The position numbers and the translations under genes are program-made. Of a stretch of DNA of 27,396 nt, positions 1,944 to 25,739 are shown piece by piece; within the stretch, counting starts at the first letter, position 1; each line of letters begins with the position of its first letter. Origin of the DNA: Deltaproteobacteria bacterium. Lineage in GTDB: Bacteria; Desulfobacterota; Binatia; Binatales; Binataceae. Location of the stretch: assembly GCA_027317185.1 (NCBI GenBank), contig DAHVFB010000048.1, positions 1 to 27,396 of the forward strand, in the 5' to 3' direction. Under the pieces are notes generated by a model. The model made no database searches, was not told where the DNA came from, and saw only the letters and a list, made by a program, of their open reading frames with translations.

Positions 1944-2747
1944 TCAGGTCTTGCGCCACAATACTAACGCTCGCCTGACCGATTCTCCATCGCGCGATAG
2001 TTCATAGCTGTCGTCAGTGACCAACTGCAATCCAGCGGCTTGCGATTCAGCCATCTCAGCCGCCTGTCGCGAGCTGGCATATAGCATCGCGATACCGCCG
2101 GGCTTAAGCGCTGCGCGGGCCACTGCATGGAAATCGCCGGCATCGCCGACCGCGCGCGTCGTCACCAAGTGGTATTTGGCTTCAAAGGTACGCGGGGTAG
2201 CGCGATCGCCCATGACGGTCAGATCGAACAGGCCTAGTTCCTCGGCCGTCACCGCCAGAAAACTGGCGCGTTTGCGGCGTGACTCGCATAAAGTGAAATG
2301 CGCGCGGGATGCAGCGGCCAGCACCAGGCCGGGGAAACCGGCTCCGCTGCCGAGATCGAGCACCTCGCTATCGGGAGTAAAGGCCTTGGCGAGGGCCGGG
2401 ATCTTGCCGCGATCTGACATCACATACGGCATCAAACTGTCGATCACATGAAACGCGAGGTCGTCGGCATCCGAGGGTCTCGCGGTCAAACTCATTTTTT
2501 CGCCCCACACCGCCAGCAACACGCCGTACATCCTGATACGCGCGAAGAACGCCGGTGGCAATTCGAGATCGAGGCGCGAAACTTCCGCTTGCACAATCTC
2601 GCTGACCGCGCTTCCGATCGCTTCGGGGTCAAGTACGCCCGGACGGCAGCGCGCGGATGCGGATTTGATGGGTTTGGATTTCGGAAGGCTTCGGGTTTCA
2701 CGTGAAACATCCGAGGTCAAGGCTCTACGCGGCACGACCGCCTCCAC
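1944..2747 (-). CDS. rsmG: 16S rRNA (guanine527-N7)-methyltransferase RsmG/GidB (ORF as drawn; true start probably internal, ~2600-2650, so the first ~35-50 codons are likely not translated)
   Basis: It has the SAM-binding motif LDLGSGAGFPGLVLA and an RsmG-like N-terminal helix (...YGVLLAVWGEKMSLTA). Typical RsmG is ~210 aa whereas the ORF is 267 aa. It lies immediately downstream of mnmG as in gidA-gidB operons. Confidence 0.8.
   Translation of the reverse strand: MEAVVPRRALTSDVSRETRSLPKSKPIKSASARCRPGVLDPEAIGSAVSEIVQAEVSRLDLELPPAFFARIRMYGVLLAVWGEKMSLTARPSDADDLAFHVIDSLMPYVMSDRGKIPALAKAFTPDSEVLDLGSGAGFPGLVLAAASRAHFTLCESRRKRASFLAVTAEELGLFDLTVMGDRATPRTFEAKYHLVTTRAVGDAGDFHAVARAALKPGGIAMLYASSRQAAEMAESQAAGLQLVTDDSYELSRDGESVRRALVLWRKT
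2694..2709. promoter_or_regulatory. parS: parS centromere-like site (GGTTTCACGTGAAACA)
   Basis: 15/16 match to the consensus TGTTTCACGTGAAACA. It lies at the mnmG-rsmG junction, inside the dubious 5' extension of the rsmG ORF. Confidence 0.75.
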
Positions 2748-4593
2748 TTTTGATATGAATCGCCAAAATCGAGATGGCCGCGGGAGTCACCCCTGGCATC
2801 CGCGCCGCCTGGCCCAAAGAGCGCGGACGCGTCGACGACAGCCGCTCTCGTACCTCGGTCGAAAGCCCTGGCACCAGTTCATAGTCAATTGAACCTGGAA
2901 TCTGGGTATCTTCGAGACGTTTGAAGCGCTCGATCGACTCGTTCTGCCGCCGAACATAGCCCGCGTACTTCACTTCGATTTCGAGCTCGGCTTCCTCATC
3001 GAGATTGAGTGCGCTCTCCAAACCGGCCATCTTCAACACCGACCGATACGAACTTTCGGGCCGCCGCAGCAATTCGATCGCTCGGACCGCCTGCGAAATC
3101 GGCGCCGATCCCATCTCCGCCAATTCCATATTTACGGCCGCAGTCGGATAAATAATCGTTTTTGAATATCGTTCTATTTCCGTACTCACGCGCGCGGTCT
3201 TCAGATCGACCCCGGCGGCATTGGCGGCGTCAAGCAACCCAAGCTGCAAGCCGATTTGCGATAACCGACGATCGGCGTTGTCCTCCCGCAACGTCAGACG
3301 GTACTCCGCGCGCGAGGTAAACATCCGGTATGGCTCGCCGCCGATACCCCGCGTCACCAGGTCGTCGATCATCACGCCGATGTAGGCCTGATCGCGCCGC
3401 AGTATCAGCGCATCTTCGCCACGCAATTTCAGCACCGCGTTGATCCCGGCCATCAGTCCCTGTGCCGCGGCCTCTTCGTAGCCGGTGGTGCCGTTGATCT
3501 GCCCCGCCATGAACAGCCCCGCTATCAGCCGCGTTTCAAGTGACGGACCAAGCTGACGAGGGTCGGAAAAGTCGTACTCGATCGCATAGCCGGGGCGCAT
3601 TATCTCAGCATTTTCAAGCCCTTCGATGGAACGCACCATCGCGATCTGCACATCGAGCGGCAAACTGGTGGAGAGTCCGTTGGGATAAACCTCGACCGTA
3701 TCGCGGCCTTCGGGCTCGAGAAAAATGTGATGGCGATCCTTGTCGCGAAATCGCATCACCTTGTCTTCAATCGAGGGACAGTAACGCGGACCACGGCTCG
3801 AAATCACGCCGGAATACATCGGCGAGCGATCGATTCCGCTCCGAATCAGTTCGTGAGTACGAAGATTAGTATAGGTCAGATGGCAAGGGAGCTGTTCCCG
3901 TTCAATCCGTTCGGTGCGAAACGAGAACGGCGGCGGCGGCGTGTCGCCGGGCTGCAACTCAAGTTTCGCGTAATCGATCGTGCGCGCGTCGAGGCGCGGA
4001 CAGGTCCCGGTCTTGAGCCTTCCAATTGTAAAACCTAGTTCTGAAAGATGCCCGCTGAGGCCCATCGCAGCGAAATCACCAGCTCTTCCCGCCGAATAAT
4101 TTTTCAAGCCGACGTGAATCAAGCCCTTCAGAAAGGTGCCGGTGGTGAGGATCACCGTTTTGGCTTCGAACTCTTCGCCGATCTGAGACTCGACCCCACG
4201 GATGGTCCCGTCCTCGACCATCAGGCGTTCGACCGAGGCCTGACGGATATTCAGATTCGGGGTGTTTTCCAGCACGCGCTTCATGCGGCTGCGGTAGGCC
4301 GCTTTATCCGCCTGGGCGCGCCGCGCACGCACGGCCGGCCCCTTGCGCGTATTCAGAAAACGGAACTGAATCCCGGTTTCGTCGATTGCAAGGCCCATCT
4401 CGCCGCCGAGCGCGTCGATTTCGCGCACCAGGTGGCCCTTGCCGATGCCGCCGATCGCCGGATTGCACGACATCTGACCGATATGGTCAAGGTTGAGCGT
4501 GAGCATCAACGTCGCCGCGCCCATCCGGGCCGCCGCCAGGGCAGCCTCGATCCCGGCATGGCCGGCGCCCACCACGATTACATCGTACTGCAT
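2725..4593 (-). CDS. mnmG: tRNA uridine-5-carboxymethylaminomethyl modification enzyme MnmG/GidA
   Basis: 622 aa. The N-terminal FAD-binding motif MQYDVIVVGAGHAGIEAALAAARMGA and the length are typical of GidA. It is flanked by mnmE and rsmG. Confidence 0.93.
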   Translation of the reverse strand: MQYDVIVVGAGHAGIEAALAAARMGAATLMLTLNLDHIGQMSCNPAIGGIGKGHLVREIDALGGEMGLAIDETGIQFRFLNTRKGPAVRARRAQADKAAYRSRMKRVLENTPNLNIRQASVERLMVEDGTIRGVESQIGEEFEAKTVILTTGTFLKGLIHVGLKNYSAGRAGDFAAMGLSGHLSELGFTIGRLKTGTCPRLDARTIDYAKLELQPGDTPPPPFSFRTERIEREQLPCHLTYTNLRTHELIRSGIDRSPMYSGVISSRGPRYCPSIEDKVMRFRDKDRHHIFLEPEGRDTVEVYPNGLSTSLPLDVQIAMVRSIEGLENAEIMRPGYAIEYDFSDPRQLGPSLETRLIAGLFMAGQINGTTGYEEAAAQGLMAGINAVLKLRGEDALILRRDQAYIGVMIDDLVTRGIGGEPYRMFTSRAEYRLTLREDNADRRLSQIGLQLGLLDAANAAGVDLKTARVSTEIERYSKTIIYPTAAVNMELAEMGSAPISQAVRAIELLRRPESSYRSVLKMAGLESALNLDEEAELEIEVKYAGYVRRQNESIERFKRLEDTQIPGSIDYELVPGLSTEVRERLSSTRPRSLGQAARMPGVTPAAISILAIHIKSGGGRAA

Positions 4594-4637
4594 AAGTGAA
4601 TTAGCCGATTGGATTATGGTATCCAGCGCACGCCCGC

Positions 4638-4659
4638 AAAAGCCAGCGACGCGGCTTTT
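4638..4659 (-). terminator. Hairpin between mnmE and mnmG (AAAAGCC-N8-GGCTTTT), an intrinsic-terminator/attenuator-like structure
   Basis: A 7-bp perfect inverted repeat with an 8-nt loop sits in the 168-bp mnmE-mnmG spacer. On the minus strand the stem is followed by UUUUGCGGG. Confidence 0.35.
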
Positions 4660-4761
4660 CGCGAAACCTGCGCAAATCAGCTTAACTATGGACTACCAGC
4701 TTTGCCATCACTGTCGCGCAGCATTCGGGTATTGCCGGTTCCGTGATCGATTTTGTTTGAT

Positions 4762-6150
4762 TTATTTGCCGATGCAGAACTCGCGGAAGATAACATCGAG
4801 CACGTCTTCCGAGTCCACCGCGCCGGTAATCGCCGTCAGCGCCTCGGATGCGAGGGTCACCTCGACCGCGACAATTTCGGGCGGCATGCCGTCGAGCGCC
4901 GCCTGCCGCGCCGATCGCAGCAGTTCGATTGCCCGGGCCAGCGCCTCGCGATGGCGTTCGCGTGAAATCGCCACCGTGTCGGTCAGTCCCTCGCCAGTGG
5001 CCGCTTCAATCTGATGAAGAATCGCATCGCGAAGCTCGTCCACTCCCTGCGCGCGCAGGGCCGAAAACCGAATTATCGGCGCGGTCACGCCGCGATCATT
5101 AAACTGTCTCTCGCTCGCCGAGGGCGGCAGATCCGATTTATTGAGCAGCGCGATACCTGCCCGATTCGCCAGCAGTTCCATCACCCGGAAATCATCCGCT
5201 TGAAGCGCTTCAGAGGAATCGAACACCGCGATCAGCAGGTCGGCGTCGCGGGCGCGTTCGAGCGCGCGCTCGATACCAATCCGCTCGACCTGATCGCCCG
5301 CTTCACGGATCCCGGCCGTGTCCTGCAACACCACCGGGTAACCGCCAAGCTGGAGAGTATCCTCGATCACGTCGCGCGTGGTGCCGGGTATCGGAGTGAC
5401 GATCGCGCGTTCGATACCGAGCATCAGGTTAAGGATGCTCGACTTGCCCACGTTGGGACGCCCGATAATCGCCGCCCGAATGCCCTCGCGGGCGATTCGT
5501 CCGCGATCGAAGGTCGCGTGCAGCGCCGCAACGTCCTCGATCAGCGCTTCAATCTCCGCCGCGATCTGAGCGCGCGAGGGCAGCTTCAGGTCCTCGTCGG
5601 AAAAATCGATCTCGGCTTCCAGATGGGCGCGAATCGCCAGCACCTGGCCGCGCAGACCGTCGACGCGAACAGCCAGCGCACCGTTAAGCTGCCCCAGCGC
5701 CAGCGTCAGCGCCCGCTCGCCGCGCGCCTCGATCAGATCGCGAATCGCTTCGGCCTCAGTCAAATCGATGCGCCCGTTCAAAAATGCCCGCCGGGTGAAT
5801 TCGCCGCGCTCAGCCAGCCGCGCGCCAGCCGCGACCGCCAGTCCGGCGACGCGTCGTATCAGGTAGGCGCCGCCATGGCAGTGCAGCTCCGCAACATCCT
5901 CGCCGGTGAAGCTTTTCGGCTGCGGAAAGAAGACCGCCATTGCGCGATCGATACCCGCGCCGCCGCGCGGATCGCGAATTTCGCCCAGCCGCAGCACGCG
6001 CGCCGCAGCACCATTCGGGATGGCGCCGCCGAGCGGGGTCCAGATCAGCTTGACGATACTGAAGGCCGCGGGCCCCGAGAGCCGCACGATACCGACCGCC
6101 CCGGTTCCGGGCGGCGTTATCGGCGCGACGATAGTATCTTCGAAGTACAT
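4762..6150 (-). CDS. mnmE: tRNA modification GTPase MnmE/TrmE
   Basis: 462 aa. It has a G-domain (GRPNVGKSSILN, DTAGIRE) and the hallmark C-terminal CIGK tetrapeptide. Confidence 0.93.
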   Translation of the reverse strand: MYFEDTIVAPITPPGTGAVGIVRLSGPAAFSIVKLIWTPLGGAIPNGAAARVLRLGEIRDPRGGAGIDRAMAVFFPQPKSFTGEDVAELHCHGGAYLIRRVAGLAVAAGARLAERGEFTRRAFLNGRIDLTEAEAIRDLIEARGERALTLALGQLNGALAVRVDGLRGQVLAIRAHLEAEIDFSDEDLKLPSRAQIAAEIEALIEDVAALHATFDRGRIAREGIRAAIIGRPNVGKSSILNLMLGIERAIVTPIPGTTRDVIEDTLQLGGYPVVLQDTAGIREAGDQVERIGIERALERARDADLLIAVFDSSEALQADDFRVMELLANRAGIALLNKSDLPPSASERQFNDRGVTAPIIRFSALRAQGVDELRDAILHQIEAATGEGLTDTVAISRERHREALARAIELLRSARQAALDGMPPEIVAVEVTLASEALTAITGAVDSEDVLDVIFREFCIGK

Positions 6151-6428
6151 TGCAGAGTGGATTGTCCGGCGCGGATCGGCCGGACGTATGACGATTCAGT
6201 TTGATCCAGCCGCCGGCGCAGGGTAATTTTGCGTTCCATTGTAATGTTGCCGGGGCCGCTTGCGAAATCGAGCTGAGCTGGCAATCGTTGGTAGTCGCTC
6301 CGGGTATTCGCTCCATCTTAAAACCCACGATCGGATGGCCGCGCGAGTTCGCCGCGGACCTGCGCCGGAGAAAATTCGCATCCCGAGAGCTTGCCCGCTC
6401 TGGCCGGGTATGGTTCGATGGCGAGCAC

Positions 6429-6456
6429 TGCGAAACGAACAAAAGTCTGATATAAA
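6429..6456 (+). promoter_or_regulatory. Candidate sigma70-type promoter for rpmH/rnpA (TGCGAA-16 nt-TATAAA), overlapping the near-direct repeat AAAAGTCTGA/AAAAGTCAGA
   Basis: Hexamers with a 16-nt spacer lie ~45-60 nt upstream of the rnpA/rpmH starts. This is sequence inspection only. Confidence 0.25.
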
Positions 6457-6500
6457 AGTCAGAATACAACTTGCCGGCCGTCTGAGCCGGAGCGTGAAAA

Positions 6501-7031
6501 TTGGCCTTAACTGATGAAAAGGACTTATCAACCCCACAATCGGCGACGAAAACGAACCCACGGCTTTCTGGCGCGAATGGCGACGCCGGGAGGGCGGGCG
6601 GTGATAAAACGCCGCCGCAACAAGGGCCGCAAGCGGCTGGCGATATCGATTCCGCCGAAGCAGCCCGGCTAGGCCGGCGGCCCGAGAGTTTTAGCTCTGC
6701 CGATCGTATACGCCGGCGAGCAGAATTTCTCCGGCTCCAACGCTACGGAATTCGAGTACAGAGCGATCATTTCGTCCTGTATGCAATACGTTTTGCGGCG
6801 GGCGAACCCTCGCGGCTGGGAATCACGGTATCGCGGCAGGTTGGCCAGGCGGTCGTCCGTAATCGTATCAAGCGGCGCGTGCGCGAGTGTTTTCGGCGCT
6901 CGATTAGATCGACGATACCTGCCGGAATCGGTATGGTGGTGATTGCCAGGAGGGGTGCCGGAACGCTCGATTTTGCGACGATACGTTCCGAGCTTGGAAC
7001 AGCAGCCTTCAGAATCGGTCAAAACCTTTGA
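6501..7031 (+). CDS. rnpA: Ribonuclease P protein component RnpA (TTG start; N-terminal ~60 aa overlaps rpmH in another frame)
   Basis: The conserved RnpA core is [26 protein letters not shown]...[27 protein letters not shown]. There is no ATG/GTG/TTG in frame between the rpmH stop and this conserved core. The only canonical in-frame start is TTG 6501, with GGAG 8 nt upstream. Confidence 0.75.
6514..6672 (+). CDS. rpmH: 50S ribosomal protein L34
   Basis: 52-aa [55 protein letters not shown], a near-universal L34 sequence. It is below the ORF-track size cut-off, so it was found by manual translation. Confidence 0.92.
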
Positions 7032-7330
7032 ATATCGACTCAAATGCGTCCTGCCCTTACGTGCGATCCTTGACCGGTCGCGTCGCGTGCGCGATCGCGT
7101 TGTCGACGCTCAGTTTATACCGCATTATTGTCTCGCCACTTTTGAGCGCCGTGCTTGGTCATGCATGCCGTTTCGATCCGACCTGCTCGGTTTACGCCCA
7201 TGATGCGATTGCGAACCATGGCGTTGCGCGCGGCGCCTGGCTGGCGATCAGGCGACTTTTGCGCTGCCGTCCGGGCGGCGGATGGGGCTACGATCCCGCG
7301 CCGCATACGGGATCAATCGCACAGCTCTGA
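7028..7330 (+). CDS. yidD: Membrane protein insertion efficiency factor YidD
   Basis: [11 protein letters not shown]...[17 protein letters not shown] matches the YidD/hemolytic-domain signature (CRF.P[ST]CS.Y...RC[HR]P.GG.G.DP.P). The TTG 7028 overlaps the rnpA stop (TTGA). An alternative GTG start lies at 7061. Confidence 0.85.
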
Positions 7331-7340
7331 CGGAGATTAA

Positions 7341-8996
7341 TTGGATTCTCGCACATTGATTGTCGTCCTGCTTTCGATCGGCCTCATCTTCGCCTATCAA
7401 GAGTTGGTTCTGAAGCGGCTGTATCCGCCGCACAAACAAGTCGAGCAGGCGCAGAGTATCGCCAGCCCGGAGGGCGCCGGACCGCAATCGGATGCGGCCG
7501 GCGGCGGATCGTCCGCCCAGATTGCCGCCAATTCGATGATCGGCGCCGCGAACCTCGCGCCGCGCACGATCGAGATCGACACCCACCTGTATCAGGCGGT
7601 CCTGACCACCAGGGGCGGACGGTTGCTCAGTCTGCGGCTGAAGGACTTTCGCGAAACCGCCGCGCCGGGCAGTCCCTGGTACGAGATGGTACCGACTGCG
7701 CCCGGCGGCAAGCTGCCGTTGGGATTAGTGGTCAATCGCGCCGGTACGACGCTGACCGATTCCGCGCTCGATTATGCGACCGACGCGCCCGCGCGGCTCG
7801 ATGCCACTGCGGGACACCCGGTAACCATCACCTTCCGCGCGAAAACCCACGATGGCCTCGCAGTCGAGAAATCCCTGATTTTTCGTGATGACAGCTACGC
7901 CTTCGACCTCGATGCCGCGATCACGGGCGAGACCACCGGCCTCACCCAGACCGGCTTCGGCATCAGTCAGCCGCTGACCAAGCATGCCGGCTACGCCGAC
8001 ATCCCGGAGCTGCAGGCCGAGGTTCAGGGTAAGACGCTCACCGAGCGAGAAAAGGCGCTGGAAAAGGGCGCGGCGCCCGCCAGCGGCCAGATCACCTATG
8101 CCGGCTTCGGCGATCGGTACTTCCTCTCCGTTTATCTGCCGATTGCCCCAAACAGCGGCACGCTGCAGATGAGCTATGGCGGCGATGAAGCGCAGGCTCG
8201 AATTCTTTTCGACCGCACGGCCAAAATCAGCACGGCCGTTTACATGGGTCCCAAGAAGCTCGAGATCCTGGAGCAGGTCAATCCGTCGCTGAGCAAGGCC
8301 ATCGATTTCGGCTATCTCGGGATAATCGCGCTGCCGCTGCTGCGTACATTAAAATTATTTTATTATGTCGGCCACAATTACGGGATTGCTATTATCCTGC
8401 TGACTTTGGTGGTGCGGGCGCTTACGCTGCCGATGTCGATCAAAGGGCAGCGCTCGATGATGCGGATGCAGCGGCTACAGCCCCAGGTGGAACGGATTCG
8501 GGAGAAATTCAAGGACGATCAGGAGCGGCTTAATCGCGAAATGGTCGATCTGTACAAACGCAATCACGTTAACCCGCTCGGCGGATGCCTGCCGATGGTG
8601 ATCCAACTACCGATCCTGTATGGGCTGTACGAGGCCTTTCTGAACGCTTTCGAGCTGCGGCAGGCGCCGTTTATCGGATGGATCAGGGATCTTTCGGCGC
8701 CCGATTGTCTAACCATACCGGGGATGCCGGCGCTGCCGTGGACCGCCTGTCACGGCATCCCTGTGCTGGTAATTCTGCTAGCGATAACCTCGTTATCGCA
8801 GCAGTGGCTCTCGCCCAAGCAGCCCGACCCCAATCAGCAGAAAATGATGATGTACATGCCGGTTGCATTCAGTCTAATCTTCATTAATCTGCCAGCCGGG
8901 CTTACGTTGTACTATTTATCGTCAAACGTGCTCGGTATTTTGCAACAGGTTTTTCTAAACTACGAATTTAAACAGTACACCCCCGCGACGACATGA
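7341..8996 (+). CDS. yidC: Membrane protein insertase YidC
   Basis: 551 aa. It has an N-terminal TM anchor, a large periplasmic domain, and the conserved C-terminal TM core (…PLLRTL…GCLPMVIQLPILYGLY…YYLSSNVLGILQQ). Confidence 0.92.
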   Translation: MDSRTLIVVLLSIGLIFAYQELVLKRLYPPHKQVEQAQSIASPEGAGPQSDAAGGGSSAQIAANSMIGAANLAPRTIEIDTHLYQAVLTTRGGRLLSLRLKDFRETAAPGSPWYEMVPTAPGGKLPLGLVVNRAGTTLTDSALDYATDAPARLDATAGHPVTITFRAKTHDGLAVEKSLIFRDDSYAFDLDAAITGETTGLTQTGFGISQPLTKHAGYADIPELQAEVQGKTLTEREKALEKGAAPASGQITYAGFGDRYFLSVYLPIAPNSGTLQMSYGGDEAQARILFDRTAKISTAVYMGPKKLEILEQVNPSLSKAIDFGYLGIIALPLLRTLKLFYYVGHNYGIAIILLTLVVRALTLPMSIKGQRSMMRMQRLQPQVERIREKFKDDQERLNREMVDLYKRNHVNPLGGCLPMVIQLPILYGLYEAFLNAFELRQAPFIGWIRDLSAPDCLTIPGMPALPWTACHGIPVLVILLAITSLSQQWLSPKQPDPNQQKMMMYMPVAFSLIFINLPAGLTLYYLSSNVLGILQQVFLNYEFKQYTPATT

Positions 8997-10117
8997 GTGC
9001 CAGGATTTCGATCGAAAAAACCGCAGCTTCAGTCGAAGACGCCATTCGGCAGGCGCTTGAAGAACTCGGCGCACATGAGGACGATGTCATTATCGAGGTG
9101 CTGAGTACCCCGCGATCCGGGGTGCTGGGGCTTGGCGCGCGACAGGCCAAGGTCCGAGTCACCCGTCGGCCACCCGAGATTGCGCGCAGCGAGGCGCAGT
9201 CGCCACCGCCTGCGCCGCCACCGCAACGCACGCCCGATCAACCACGCCGTCCCTTGCCGCAGCGCCAGGAAACGAGCCGTCAGCCTGAGAATCAATCGCT
9301 TCCGCGTCCCGAAGAACGGCGTCCCGAAGAAAGACGGCCTCCGCGCCAGGAGCATCGGCAGAACCGTTCCGATGATCAGCGGCCTCGCGACGATCAGCGG
9401 CCTCGCGACGAACGGCGGCCTCGCGACGAACGGCGGCCACGTCCCGAGCGTGCGCCGCGAAACGATTCGCCAACGCCATCGCCGGAGCGTCCGCCGCGCG
9501 ATGAGGAACGCGGAAGTGAATCGGGATTGCCCGACAATCGACCTAATCTGGACCGCGCGGCGCAAACCCGTGAAGCGATCGAAGCGCTGACGCGCATCCT
9601 CGATCTGATGGGCGAGCGATGCGTGGTGGCCGAAGGCGACCAGGATCCGGAAAATATTGAACTCGAGATTAAGGGTGATGGCTCCGGGATCCTTATCGGC
9701 CGTCATGGTCAGACGCTGGATGCGCTCGAATACATCATCAACCGGATTCTCGCCCGGCGGGTGAAAGAGGCGCTCAACGTCGCGCTGGACACGGAGTCAT
9801 ATCGCGCCCGCCGCCGTCAGCAGATTCATCGGATGGCGCTTTCGATGGGTGAGCAGGCCAAACGCGAACATGAGACGGTGCACCTCGAGCCGATGCCGCC
9901 GCGTGAGCGCCGAATCGTCCATCTGGCGCTCAAAGACGATCCTTTGATAACCACCCGTTCCGCCGGCGAGGGCTACCTGCGCACGATCGAAATCGTTCCG
10001 GTCGGAGGTGGTGCGCCGCGTGAGGGCCATTCGCGCGATCGGAATCGTGAGCATAACCGCGAACCGGCGATTGGCGAGCAGGGCGGCTTCAAACACGGCC
10101 AGAAACGGATCATCTAA
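8993..10117 (+). CDS. khpB: Jag/KhpB RNA-binding protein (Jag_N + KH + R3H) with a ~130-aa Arg/Pro/Glu/Asp-rich repetitive insert
   Basis: The Jag N-domain is MSARISIEKTAASVEDAIRQALEELG. A KH-like region follows (ENIELEIKGDGSGILIGRHGQTLDALEYIINRI), then an R3H region (RRIVHLALKDDPLITTRSAGEGYLRTIEI). Its start overlaps the yidC stop (ATGA). It has the canonical position after yidC. Confidence 0.85.
   Translation: MSARISIEKTAASVEDAIRQALEELGAHEDDVIIEVLSTPRSGVLGLGARQAKVRVTRRPPEIARSEAQSPPPAPPPQRTPDQPRRPLPQRQETSRQPENQSLPRPEERRPEERRPPRQEHRQNRSDDQRPRDDQRPRDERRPRDERRPRPERAPRNDSPTPSPERPPRDEERGSESGLPDNRPNLDRAAQTREAIEALTRILDLMGERCVVAEGDQDPENIELEIKGDGSGILIGRHGQTLDALEYIINRILARRVKEALNVALDTESYRARRRQQIHRMALSMGEQAKREHETVHLEPMPPRERRIVHLALKDDPLITTRSAGEGYLRTIEIVPVGGGAPREGHSRDRNREHNREPAIGEQGGFKHGQKRII
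9374..9445 (+). repeat. Four tandem 18-bp coding repeats (GATCAGCGGCCTCGCGAC x2, GAACGGCGGCCTCGCGAC, degenerate 4th) inside jag/khpB
   Basis: Direct inspection shows they encode DQRPRD-DQRPRD-ERRPRD-ERRPRP. Adjacent 15-bp repeats encode PEERR x2 (9309-9340). Confidence 0.8.
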
Positions 10118-10606: not shown

Positions 10607-10811
10607 AGCTCTAGTATCCTCTCCTTCAACGACCAGACTAATCGTCAAACGGCCGCGATTTAAATTCCGCGATCAAACGGGCCGGTGATAAATTCTGCCG
10701 GCTGCTTTCGCGGCGTATACAGGTATCGGCCACTTTGCACGATCGAATTCTCGGTTACAATAACCCTGAATACTCGGCCCAACGGCTAGCACAAAGCAGG
10801 ATGATATTGAA

Positions 10812-12230
<1,419 letters not shown>

Positions 12231-12255
12231 CACAACCGCCGCATCGGGAGGGGGA

Positions 12256-12417
12256 ATGATGGCCGCGAGAGTTGCGCCGTTGGTTAGTTCGGTGATTATC
12301 GCCGGATCGATAGCGATGATCGCCGCGATACTGGCGATCGCATCGGTGGTACATGCCGCGGGCCCGCAACTCCCGCCCGGCGATCCGTTGATCGACCCGC
12401 CGATCGTCAATGGGTAG
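12256..12417 (+). other. SD-preceded ORF segment encoding a signal peptide (MMAARVAPLVSSVIIAGSIAMIAAILAIASVVHAAGPQLPPGDPLIDPPIVNG), terminated by TAG 12415-12417 in the same frame as the downstream pLGIC ORF
   Basis: GGGAGGGGG lies 5 nt upstream of ATG 12256. It has a hydrophobic h-region and an AxA-like site (VHA-AG). Its frame is identical to that of ORF 12442..13338. Confidence 0.6.
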
Positions 12418-12441
12418 CCGGTCAAAGTCCGGATTGCGCTG

Positions 12442-13338
12442 GTGATCACCAACATCGCGGGCATCGACGAGGCCGCCGAGCGTTTCCAGATCAACGCCTA
12501 CCTGTTCGCCGATTGGCGCGACCCGCGCCTGCAACATCCGCCGAAACCCGGCGGACTGCCGGTCAGCTACCGGCCCGGCGAGATCTGGCATCCGCAGGCC
12601 GAGTTCGTCAACGCGGTCAGGCCGCACGAACGCCAGGATATCTCGCTCGCGGCCGAGGCCGACGGCACGGTGCATTACGTGGAACGGCTGGACGCCGAAC
12701 TATCATCGAAATTTTTTCTGCGCAGCTTTCCCTTCGATAGCCAGACTTTGCAGATCGTTATTCATCCGTTCGCCAGCGAGGCCCGCTATGTGACCTACAC
12801 CGTCGATCGCGCGCGCAGCTCGACCGCCTCGGAATTCAATGCCTACAGCTCGCTGGCCGATTGGAAGGTGACCGGAATGACGCCGGTCGAATCGATTGTG
12901 CGCTCGGTAAACGGCGGCGAAGTCTCCGAGGTCCGCTTCGAAATCAAGGCTGTGCGCCAGTATGAATTTTATATCTGGAAAATTTTCCTGCCGCTGTTTC
13001 TGATGGTGATGCTGTCGTGGACCGTGTTCTGGATGGACCCGTTCGATTTAAAGAACCAGATTCAGGTCGCGGTGGTGACGCTGCTGACAGTAATCGCCTT
13101 CGCGCTGGCGATTTCTTCCAGCCTGCCCAAGGTTCCATATCTCACGTTCTCCGATGCTTTCTTCCTCACCTGCTACATCTTCGTTTTCATTTCGATTATC
13201 GAGCTGATGACGGTACATGTCACTCATCGCAGGCGCGGCAAGGATTTCGGCCTGCGCATCCGCCGAGTCTCGCGATGGCTGGTGCCGCTCGGTTTCTGCC
13301 TGACGCTGGCGGTCATCGCATTCCGCTTTCTGACCTAA
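12442..13338 (+). CDS. Prokaryotic pentameric ligand-gated ion channel (Cys-loop receptor superfamily; ECD + 4 TM). The ORF shown lacks its signal peptide because of an upstream in-frame TAG, so it is a possible pseudogene
   Basis: The extracellular-domain beta-strands (IALVITNIAGIDEAAERFQINAYLFADWRDPRLQ) resemble the GLIC/ELIC N-terminus. There is a 'Cys-loop' equivalent FPFDSQTLQIVI. M1-M3 run ...YIWKIFLPLFLMVMLSWTVFWMD...VAVVTLLTVIAFAL... There is a short M3-M4 loop and a C-terminal M4. Confidence 0.8.
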   Translation: MITNIAGIDEAAERFQINAYLFADWRDPRLQHPPKPGGLPVSYRPGEIWHPQAEFVNAVRPHERQDISLAAEADGTVHYVERLDAELSSKFFLRSFPFDSQTLQIVIHPFASEARYVTYTVDRARSSTASEFNAYSSLADWKVTGMTPVESIVRSVNGGEVSEVRFEIKAVRQYEFYIWKIFLPLFLMVMLSWTVFWMDPFDLKNQIQVAVVTLLTVIAFALAISSSLPKVPYLTFSDAFFLTCYIFVFISIIELMTVHVTHRRRGKDFGLRIRRVSRWLVPLGFCLTLAVIAFRFLT

Positions 13339-13374
13339 AGACGGAATAAAAAGAATTAGGTGCCGAGGTAATCG

Positions 13375-13647
13375 ATGAACTTTAATTTCAGCCCGCTTAG
13401 CTTCGCACACGCACTTGAATTTCTGCATTGGTGGCAATGGGCGGTCCTTGCAGTTTGGGGTTTGCTATTTTTGTGGATTCTTGAAGATTTCCCGAAACTT
13501 GCTGCCTTTTTCGCTCTTATGCCTCGTCACCCGGTAATTGCGGGCGTAGCATCCTTCTCTACAGTCTGGTCGCTCGGCACACTTTTCAACGATTTGGTCA
13601 TCAAGCGGCAACTAGCCAAGAATCACAAGCTGGAGACCCTAAATTAA
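13375..13647 (+). CDS. Small hypothetical membrane protein (90 aa, 1-2 predicted TM helices), compositionally atypical (low GC)
   Basis: GAGGT lies 6 nt upstream of the ATG. It is a 270-nt open frame in a ~47% GC stretch, where random ORFs are unlikely. It has a hydrophobic core, WQWAVLAVWGLLFLWIL. Confidence 0.45.
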   Translation: MNFNFSPLSFAHALEFLHWWQWAVLAVWGLLFLWILEDFPKLAAFFALMPRHPVIAGVASFSTVWSLGTLFNDLVIKRQLAKNHKLETLN

Positions 13648-13864
13648 TTTCGGACGATTCACGCCGGAGCTGATTTGACATGCGCCAAAGTAGCGTGATC
13701 GCGAACGCTCGCATTGGTGATGCTTATTGCTGCGCGCAGAACTACAATCGGAATCTAATGGAGCGCGAACGCGAAACCCGAACTGGCCGCCAACCATCAT
13801 TCACCCAGCCGGTCATCATTAAAACTGTGATTAACAATTGCGTTGATAACGCGAGGAGCCGACG

Positions 13865-24379: not shown

Positions 24380-25739
24380 GACAAGCTGCGGCGGCGCGAG
24401 CGCCGCGGCAACGCCACCACCGACGCGACTGAAACGTTACAGGACATGCCGATGCTCCTGCCTCTTTACTGCGTCCGACCTCGACCCCCCGGTGTGAGAC
24501 AATGGGTGGACAATACATCGACTTCGGTGCAACAATAGGCACATGAAGTCGCGTCAATTTGGCCCTATTGACCTGCGTAAGTGGATTATCCAATCTATAC
24601 GAGCTGGTCAACTTAGAATAGTTTCAAGCGCCGCAGCTCAGTTTGGAATTTCCCGTCAAACCGTCCACCGTGAAATTCAGGAGATGATTCGGCAAGGTTT
24701 GCTGACGTCTGCCGGAAATACTCGCGCGCGGCAATATCAGTTGCCAATTATCAACCAATTTGCTGTCGACATGGCGGTCACACCGAATTTGGAAGAAGAC
24801 CTGATCTGGCGAAAACATATTGAACCAATATTTGCTGATTTGCCGCCCAACGTGCAGTTAATCGGCCAACATGGATTTACCGAAATGCTAAACAATGTGA
24901 TCGATCATTCGGGGTCCGTGATAGTTCATCTTTTGGCGCTACGCACTGCCGCGAACGTTTCGATGATGGTATCCGACGAGGGGATCGGCATTTTCAAGAA
25001 AATTTATATGGAGCGGTCGCTCGAGGATCCGCGTCACGCGATTCTGGAGCTTTCCAAAGGCCGGTTAACCACTGATCCGGACAGGCACACGGGAGAGGGA
25101 ATATTCTTCACGTCCCGTATATTCGATCGATTCGCAATTTTGTCCGGGAACCTATCGTTAACGTGCACGCCCGAACAGGGAGATTGGCTGTTTGATTTGG
25201 CCGACTGGGGAGTCAAGGTTGACGAACTGCCGTCCGGTATGCCCGGAACGCAAGTGCTAATGGAGATTAGTGCTTTCAGTGAACGTTCGCTTAAACAAGT
25301 GACGGATGAATTTGCGGGCGAAGATCAAGATTATTCGTTTTCAAAAACTCAGGTGCCGGTGCGGCTCGCTCGATATGGAGCAGAACAACTCGTTTCGAGA
25401 TCGCAAGCCAAAAGATTGCTAACGCGCGTAACCATCTTTAAAGAGGTAATTTTGGATTTTGAAGGGGTCGAAACGATCGGGCAGGCCTTTGCTGATGAGA
25501 TTTTCAGGGTCTTTAAAAAGGACCATCCAGGTACCCATCTGACCGTCTCAAGAGCGAACTCTCAGGTCGCGGCCATGATTAAACATGTTCAGCACAGTTC
25601 CGAATCCCACTTCCCCGCCGTTTAGCCTCTCGGAGAATCTTCAATTCGCGCTAACGAAGGGCGACCGCCGGGGATGTGAATGATGAACCCGTGCCGACGT
25701 ATATCGTATAGCCAAAGCGGAACAGTGGAGGGCGGTTAC
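24380..25739 (+). mobile_element. Candidate ~1.36-kb low-GC insertion/islet bounded by the 97-bp direct repeats, carrying one gene and no recognisable recombinase
   Basis: GC drops visibly (to roughly 48-52%) relative to flanks of ~62-65%. The repeat structure duplicates the target sequence. The element interrupts the SPFH-stop/atpE-terminator junction. Confidence 0.45.
24543..25625 (+). CDS. Three-domain protein: N-terminal winged-HTH, central GHKL (HATPase_c; RsbW/SpoIIAB-like Ser-kinase/ATPase) domain, C-terminal DUF4325 (STAS-like) domain
   Basis: The HTH is WIIQSIRAGQLRIVSSAAAQFGISRQTVHREIQEMIRQGLL. The GHKL N-box is TEMLNNVIDHS, the G1 box SDEGIGIF and the G2-like box TGEGIFFTS. The C-terminal ~90 aa (…AKRLLTRVTIFKEVILDFEGVETIGQAFADEIFRVF…) matches the DUF4325/STAS-like family as remembered. 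The ORF is AT-rich relative to the genome. Confidence 0.65.
   Translation: MKSRQFGPIDLRKWIIQSIRAGQLRIVSSAAAQFGISRQTVHREIQEMIRQGLLTSAGNTRARQYQLPIINQFAVDMAVTPNLEEDLIWRKHIEPIFADLPPNVQLIGQHGFTEMLNNVIDHSGSVIVHLLALRTAANVSMMVSDEGIGIFKKIYMERSLEDPRHAILELSKGRLTTDPDRHTGEGIFFTSRIFDRFAILSGNLSLTCTPEQGDWLFDLADWGVKVDELPSGMPGTQVLMEISAFSERSLKQVTDEFAGEDQDYSFSKTQVPVRLARYGAEQLVSRSQAKRLLTRVTIFKEVILDFEGVETIGQAFADEIFRVFKKDHPGTHLTVSRANSQVAAMIKHVQHSSESHFPAV

Follow-up and report, generated by a model that had tools for sequence, protein, structure and literature searches.

A probably recent amber allele of the channel gene in a Binataceae fumarase-channel operon

The stretch of DNA analysed here, in the following called the window, comprises 27,396 nt and originates from a Candidatus Binataceae metagenome-assembled genome (MAG). 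Directly downstream of the fumarase gene fumC it carries a gene for a GLIC-like pentameric ligand-gated ion channel (pLGIC), in which an in-frame TAG codon lies between the signal-peptide-like start and the channel body. This gene is most probably a recent CAG-to-TAG nonsense allele, that is, a young pseudogene and a null allele.

The fumC gene ends with the TAG at 12228-12230 and, read directly from the sequence, is followed by a spacer of 25 nt before the ATG of the pLGIC gene at 12256 on the forward strand. The Shine-Dalgarno (SD) sequence of this start, GGGAGGGGG, is located at 12246-12254 on the same strand, and a second ATG of the same frame follows at 12259. From ATG 12256 the frame translates as MMAARVAPLVSSVIIAGSIAMIAAILAIASVVHAAGPQLPPGDPLIDPPIVNG and then reaches the amber codon at 12415-12417 (+). 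Past this codon the frame stays open for another 306 codons up to the TAA at 13336-13338. Leader and channel body are consequently not encoded by one uninterrupted open reading frame (ORF), as they are separated by the TAG. The N-terminal fragment of 53 codons (12256-12414, +) consists of the signal-peptide-like residues 1-34 (VHA/AG) and the pre-beta1 segment PQLPPGDPLIDPPIVNG. Judged by eye, residues 1-53 resemble a Sec signal peptide, with Arg5, a long hydrophobic core and VHA/AG. The GLIC-like channel body (12418-13338, +; 306 codons and the TAA) is made up of an extracellular beta-sandwich and four transmembrane helices, and no further lesion is present in it. An ORF scan for ATG, GTG or TTG identifies the GTG at 12442-12444 (+) as the first such codon downstream of the TAG; it lies inside beta1, is not preceded by an SD sequence and is used by the gene caller as the start of a 298-aa product. 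The original prediction, which was made from the letters of the window, had described a strong SD sequence, the ATG at 12256, the in-frame TAG and the open frame up to 13338. All these coordinates hold, and so does the gap of 25 nt to fumC. The GGGAGG motif is present as well, but it is 4 nt and not 5 nt away from the ATG, which is a trivial difference.

The product joined across the stop codon matches the Pfam families Neur_chan_LBD (PF02931, 69 bits, cut-off 26) and Neur_chan_memb (PF02932, 52.6 bits, cut-off 28.1). In a phmmer search of the PDB with the joined product GLIC was found with an E-value of about 2e-47, residues 5-314 of the chain being aligned, and the top 60 PDB sequence matches are all GLIC. 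With its first aligned query residue at 36-45, the match to GLIC starts before the stop (residue 54), and the position of the stop itself aligns with Glu14 of GLIC. The pre-beta1 segment DPLIDPPIVNG is kept in the relatives of the channel, and DPPIVNG-[stop]-PVKV of the window aligns with DPPIVNG-Q-PVKV of the relatives. Because the homology to pLGICs crosses the TAG, the juxtaposition of the two ORFs is not a matter of chance.

For the product encoded downstream of the TAG an AlphaFold model was built with an alignment of 38 sequences. The mean predicted local distance difference test (pLDDT) value is 81.7. In the numbering that starts after the TAG, residues 2-180 of the model form a beta-sandwich, which is followed by four helices, M1 to M4, at 183-206, 211-235, 244-273 and 275-305. 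Strand beta1 covers residues 2-17, and the GTG at 12442 corresponds to residue 9 and is located inside this strand. The previously described order of signal-peptide-like start, stop codon and beta1 is confirmed, with a homology that spans the stop. A Foldseek comparison of the model with GLIC chains yields an E-value of about 3e-27 and TM-scores of 0.85-0.88 over approximately 310 columns, with approximately 29% identity. The FPFD Pro-loop (F158, P159, F160 and D161) is invariant in the family, and the nearly invariant pre-M1 R234 is present in the window copy. By sequence and predicted structure the window gene is a GLIC-type pLGIC, for which gating and the assembly of pentamers are predicted properties. 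It is a family member by descent, but to judge from its reading frame it is no working member as it stands.

A scan of species-representative genomes yielded 80 loci, of which about 70 belong to Binataceae, and the codon homologous to 12415-12417 was mapped in each. The comparison comprises 76 other loci, orthologous or paralogous and from genomes as well as metagenomes, namely 75 loci of a codon tally and one further metagenomic locus, L084. In the tally CAG is most frequent (20), followed by AAG (10), AAA (9) and GAG (7), while AAT, TAT, CGN, CAA and others occur less often. All 76 other loci contain a sense codon at this site, and TAG occurs only in L001, which represents the window's own population. 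In L002, L004, L005 and L006, the four closest genomes or contigs with protein identities of 64-70%, the codon is CAG throughout and is embedded in the sequence (I/L)V(N/D)G-Q-P(V/I)KV. In addition, JGI metagenomes were scanned with a codon-degenerate motif that allowed NAG at the site; a single contig was found, L084, which belongs to a different lineage and has CAG. As CAG is present in all five closest relatives, the lesion is a single transition: the ancestral codon by this comparison was CAG (Gln54), and one C>T exchange at 12415 turned it into TAG. The comparison of orthologues at this codon had been proposed with the original prediction, and its outcome, together with the intact remainder of the gene, supports the very recent nonsense pseudogene that was among the options put forward there. 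The residue at this site varies within the family (Q, K, E, N, Y and R), which indicates that nothing special is required at the position.

The state of the remaining gene was analysed by an alignment of the window protein with 115 full-length homologues. The window protein departs from the family at one of the 77 columns which are conserved to at least 95%, and at eight columns if a conservation of at least 90% is considered. The intact siblings (P0002-P0009) show 0-2 and 4-9 departures, respectively. The sole departure at a column of the first kind is R124H (codon 124, CAC, 12625-12627), where 112 of the 116 family members have Arg. Codon 124 is equivalent to R85 of GLIC, which belongs to the vestibular carboxylate pocket. 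This exchange could indicate that the constraint begins to relax, or it could be a variant specific to the lineage. The window pLGIC is 68.5, 70.3 and 67.6% identical to those of L002, L004 and L006, and the L002 protein is 68.9 and 67.5% identical to those of L004 and L006; the corresponding FumC identities are comparable among each other (86-89%). Judged by these identities the branch of the window pLGIC is not lengthened. The GC content at third codon positions (GC3) is coding-like on both sides of the stop, with 0.72 before and 0.77 after it, compared to 0.79 in fumC. With no sign of relaxed evolution, the mutation is recent compared with the time since these species diverged. A long-standing pseudogene was also considered, but the tests on conserved columns, relative rate and GC3 reject it. 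The original prediction of an intact remainder with no other stops agrees with these results.

A nonsense codon that is seen in one genome raises the question whether it is real. The T at 12415 could be an artefact of sequencing, of the consensus or of mixed strains, or it could be an allele carried by a minority, and most of the cells would then carry an intact CAG. A single C>T exchange belongs to the commonest class of errors and damage, MAGs are population consensuses, and an otherwise perfectly intact gene is exactly how such an artefact would look. Moreover, no second sample of the species that could confirm the T was found in the searched genome, metagenome and protein collections. JGI metagenomes were scanned with exact 30-mers, which revealed no contig of the same population with C at 12415, and a search of 5.8 billion proteins yielded neither an intact allele nor, besides the window's own call, any relative above 72% identity. 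Against an artefact, two pipelines agree through the site: over the 281 nt compared, TAG included, the GenBank MAG and the Logan assembly of SRR12886061 are 100% identical, and the Logan contig runs unbroken through the site with the same split into ORFs of 53 aa and 298 aa. Furthermore, no stop or frameshift is found in any other gene of the window. About 19 other genes are intact with full-length domain matches, including mnmE, mnmG, rsmG, yidC, fumC, mutS2 and the genes for a ferredoxin, a luciferase-like oxidoreductase, a carboxyltransferase and an AsmA-like protein, so that the pLGIC gene is the sole broken one of about 20. As such an assembly is not generally error-prone, an assembler artefact is unlikely, as is the error in sequencing or assembly that had been offered as a second option. 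Overall, we regard an artefact or a minority allele as an unlikely explanation of the TAG.

If the TAG is real, it could still be read through by design, by a suppressor tRNA, pyrrolysine or a near-cognate tRNA, which would allow the full-length channel to be expressed under regulation, at a low level or conditionally. Signal peptide, SD sequence and channel body are all preserved, as would be expected in this case. The base 3' of the stop is C (UAG-C). The +4 base influences the efficiency of termination, and +4C increases readthrough in yeast (PMC5289835). The usual misreader of UAG is tRNA-Gln(CUG) (PMC5289835), and misreading by this tRNA would restore the ancestral Gln. However, the stop is unique to the window genome, and the site is a stop in 0 of the 76 other loci. 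The residues found there in the family vary, as mentioned above. No stimulatory fold was detected in the 99 nt from the TAG on: their minimum free energy is -30.3 kcal/mol, compared to a mean of -32.15 kcal/mol for shuffled sequences (z = +0.51), and an equal or better fold is reached by 131 of the 200 shuffles. A search of Rfam near the stop gave no match at E-values up to 1. A readthrough-stimulating RNA element was therefore rejected.

TAG is moreover an ordinary terminator in the window, where it ends fumC, mnmG and the gene at 24543-25625 at their normal C-termini. In fumC it falls at the exact residue at which the orthologues end by TGA, TAG or TAA, and in mnmG and in the gene at 24543-25625 it directly follows the last domain. 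A tRNA search of the 27-kb window found none. Because of the three normally ended genes, the missing tRNA and the variable residue, a reassignment of the code or the use of pyrrolysine is rejected for the window. The search for suppressor tRNAs that had been proposed earlier covered the 27-kb window and found none there. Regulated readthrough, which was the third option of the original prediction, finds no support in these data, and we consider both a programmed readthrough and a conditional decoding of UAG-C as Gln very unlikely. A trace of near-cognate readthrough of UAG-C by tRNA-Gln would be expected to be very low and to represent background leakage instead of a programmed event.

The 298-aa product which starts at GTG 12442 is present in GenBank as IVW54_06250 (P0001, 12442-13338, Candidatus Binataceae bacterium). 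It is 100% identical and annotated as a hypothetical protein, not as a pseudogene. This could be a real and functional protein if it is made by reinitiation, since the GTG lies 24 nt past the TAG, a distance that permits terminating ribosomes to reinitiate, and a relative, P0010, is likewise called with 298 aa. But the length of P0010 is an effect of gene calling: its frame is open upstream, CAG is present at the site and there is no ATG, GTG or TTG. A conserved truncation was for the same reasons rejected, as the DNA shows CAG within an open, signal-peptide-like frame that has no canonical start. In addition, the GTG lacks an SD sequence, and its product would be without a signal peptide and without the first 7 of the 16 residues of beta1, which agrees with the earlier statement that such a channel misses its signal peptide and the start of its extracellular domain. 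A hydrophobic leader is found at the N-terminus of full-length homologues, the GLIC precursor included. The M3-M4 loop (HRRRGKDFGLRIRRVSR) is strongly basic and would fix the topology in a way that requires the N-terminal domain to be exported. A functional protein made from the GTG is hence extremely improbable. IVW54_06250 is the 3' portion of a pLGIC gene that is disrupted, and its annotation in the database should be flagged.

The sister lineages show further irregularities in this gene. In L084 (JGI Ga0209415_10004241, 2162-3142; P0013) an in-frame deletion of 31 codons, which corresponds to window residues 209-239, takes out beta9, loop C, beta10 and the pre-M1 region including the near-invariant pre-M1 Arg. 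This is probably an independent inactivation of the channel. In both L002 and L084 the frame that leads from the fumC stop to the mature domain is open and signal-peptide-like, and it contains no ATG, GTG or TTG. Because these two loci have no canonical start, P0010 is called with 298 aa and P0013 with 237 aa. Within the subclade of the window the signal-peptide-like frame begins directly after the fumC stop and is in frame with fumC (L002, 5833-6000; L004, 2938-2991; L006, 2878-2913). In L004 and L006 the first ATG is found inside the hydrophobic core, and the conserved P-I-R-x-A-x-R-S-G-R follows in frame directly after the fumC stop, with the codons CCG ATT CGG in both. These starts may be explained by a non-canonical initiation at ATT, by termination-reinitiation or by the loss of the start codon. 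It seems that the channel is under weak or fluctuating selection in the subclade or that an unusual initiation is used there. With regard to the sequences the channel appears to be dispensable in the subclade of the window, and under weak or fluctuating selection one more knock-out is not surprising.

Taken together, a single recent C>T transition would have turned the CAG of Gln54 into an amber codon in the second gene of the fumC-pLGIC operon. Ribosomes that start at ATG 12256 would release a fragment of 53 residues, which consists of the signal peptide and a short pre-beta1 segment, and the channel body would not be produced in meaningful amounts. A product restarted at GTG 12442 would be unable to export its extracellular domain or to fold it in the periplasm. 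Since translation that ends at the TAG and a restart that allows neither export nor folding leave no functional product, the gene would be a null allele or young pseudogene, not yet burdened with further damage. We infer the loss of function of the window pLGIC as well as the fixation of the allele in the population. Some points weigh against this interpretation. The MAG and the Logan assembly share one read set (SRR12886061), and the T at 12415 was established at the level of assemblies. The tRNA search took in 27 kb of the genome, and suppressor tRNAs may be encoded elsewhere. Finally, the absence of secondary decay is equally expected if suppression still allows the gene to be expressed. 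The recent nonsense allele nevertheless remains by far the most probable explanation. The amber codon itself matters little, as it makes one more young pseudogene.

The operon in which the gene resides is a more general feature. The class II fumarase encoded by fumC (10812-12230, +, 472 aa, stop TAG 12228-12230) contains the Lyase_1 (1.9e-111) and FumaraseC_C domains. It is 86-87% identical to the FumC proteins of L002, L004 and L006 and ends at the same C-terminal position (…GPEA). A sigma-70-like match, TTTGCA-16-TACAAT, is a candidate for the promoter of fumC and the pLGIC gene (10734-10761, +; 9 of 12 matches). Sites of this kind are not more numerous in the region than in shuffled sequence, which makes this weak evidence for a promoter at 10734-10761. 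Between fumC and the pLGIC gene of the window no promoter-like or terminator-like site was matched. Among the Binataceae loci L002, L004, L006-L012, L015-L047 and L059-L074 the two genes form a conserved operon with tight and perhaps translational coupling, and in 45 loci besides the window a FumC protein with 73-87% identity is encoded directly upstream on the same strand. Exactly TGA-N6-ATG is found in 27 of these 45 loci, and in one locus the genes overlap. The linkage to fumC is absent from the homologues outside the Binataceae and from a paralogous Binataceae clade. The placement after fumC had been called unusual, but it is the rule in the Binataceae, usually with a gap of 6 nt. On a JGI contig of 4142 nt a single ORF (P0120, 448 aa) encodes the C-terminal domain of FumC (PF10415) together with a full pLGIC; according to the protein call, the fumC stop may be missing or frameshifted on this contig.

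The pairing with a fumarase suggests a class of ligands. To our knowledge no physiological role is established for any bacterial pLGIC. Short dicarboxylates potentiate GLIC in the order fumarate > succinate > malonate > glutarate (bioRxiv 10.1101/2023.03.03.530963). No positive modulator with a stronger effect on GLIC than fumarate is known. Co-crystals of GLIC with fumarate exist (PMC7336382), and GLIC is without a known agonist (10.1101/2023.03.14.530991). Our literature search revealed no paper that links a fumarase to a pLGIC and no relevant survey of the genomic context of pLGICs. The carboxylate pocket of GLIC is partly conserved in the family: R85, Y102, E104 and R105 are kept, and R77 and R133 are replaced by Glu and Phe. 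With this partial conservation the idea of fumarate as ligand is a lead and not a finding. It is conceivable, though rather doubtful, that under physiological conditions fumarate, malate or another C4-dicarboxylate gates or modulates the channels of this GLIC-like clade. The Binataceae-wide fumarase-channel operon nevertheless offers a concrete hypothesis on the ligand as well as intact orthologues such as P0002, P0008 and P0016.

Some observations concern the rest of the window. The stretch 13339-13864, between the pLGIC gene and the luciferase-like gene, has a GC content of 0.47-0.52 compared to 0.60 for the window. It contains a hydrophobic ORF of 90 aa (13375-13647) with a GC3 of 0.53 and no match in Pfam. 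The genes that flank this stretch are 82 and 129 nt apart in L002 and L084, respectively, and for this reason it looks like a lineage-specific insertion. The gene at 24543-25625, which ends with TAG, has a GC content of 0.49 and encodes a C-terminal DUF4325 (STAS-like) domain; by its composition it may have been acquired from elsewhere. An origin-type cluster is located at 1944-10117, where rsmG, mnmG and mnmE (-) diverge from yidC and jag (+). Such clusters are usually found near the replication origin. The Jag homologue of the window contains a long low-complexity insert rich in Pro, Arg and Glu.

Among the known channels, GLIC from Gloeobacter violaceus (glr4197), which is gated by protons, has the same layout as the window gene over its full length: the leader is followed by the beta-sandwich of the extracellular domain and by four transmembrane helices. 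The joined product of the window has 360 aa, and the GLIC chain 6hja_A, leader included, has 359 aa. The family of the window gene shares with GLIC the FPFD Pro-loop, the pre-M1 Arg and residues Y102, E104 and R105. Unlike GLIC, the window gene has an amber codon at the position of Glu14 and is part of a fumC operon. Throughout the family Glu takes the place of the pivot residue R77 and Phe that of R133, and the equivalent of R85, an Arg in nearly all members, is His in the window copy. ELIC from Dickeya/Erwinia, a channel gated by gamma-aminobutyric acid (GABA) and primary amines, is more distant from the window channel than GLIC. Its gene forms an operon with that of an amino-acid decarboxylase, which matches the amine ligands (PMC3119659). 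The pairing of fumC with a pLGIC gene follows the same logic, while the partner enzyme and the presumed class of ligand differ. With regard to its lesion the window gene resembles ordinary bacterial nonsense pseudogenes, in which the same kind of single-base change from a sense to a stop codon has occurred in one lineage in an otherwise conserved gene, and which gene callers likewise break up, leaving a short ORF on the 5' side and a truncated hypothetical protein on the 3' side. It differs from these in its very young age alone, as it has no secondary lesions.

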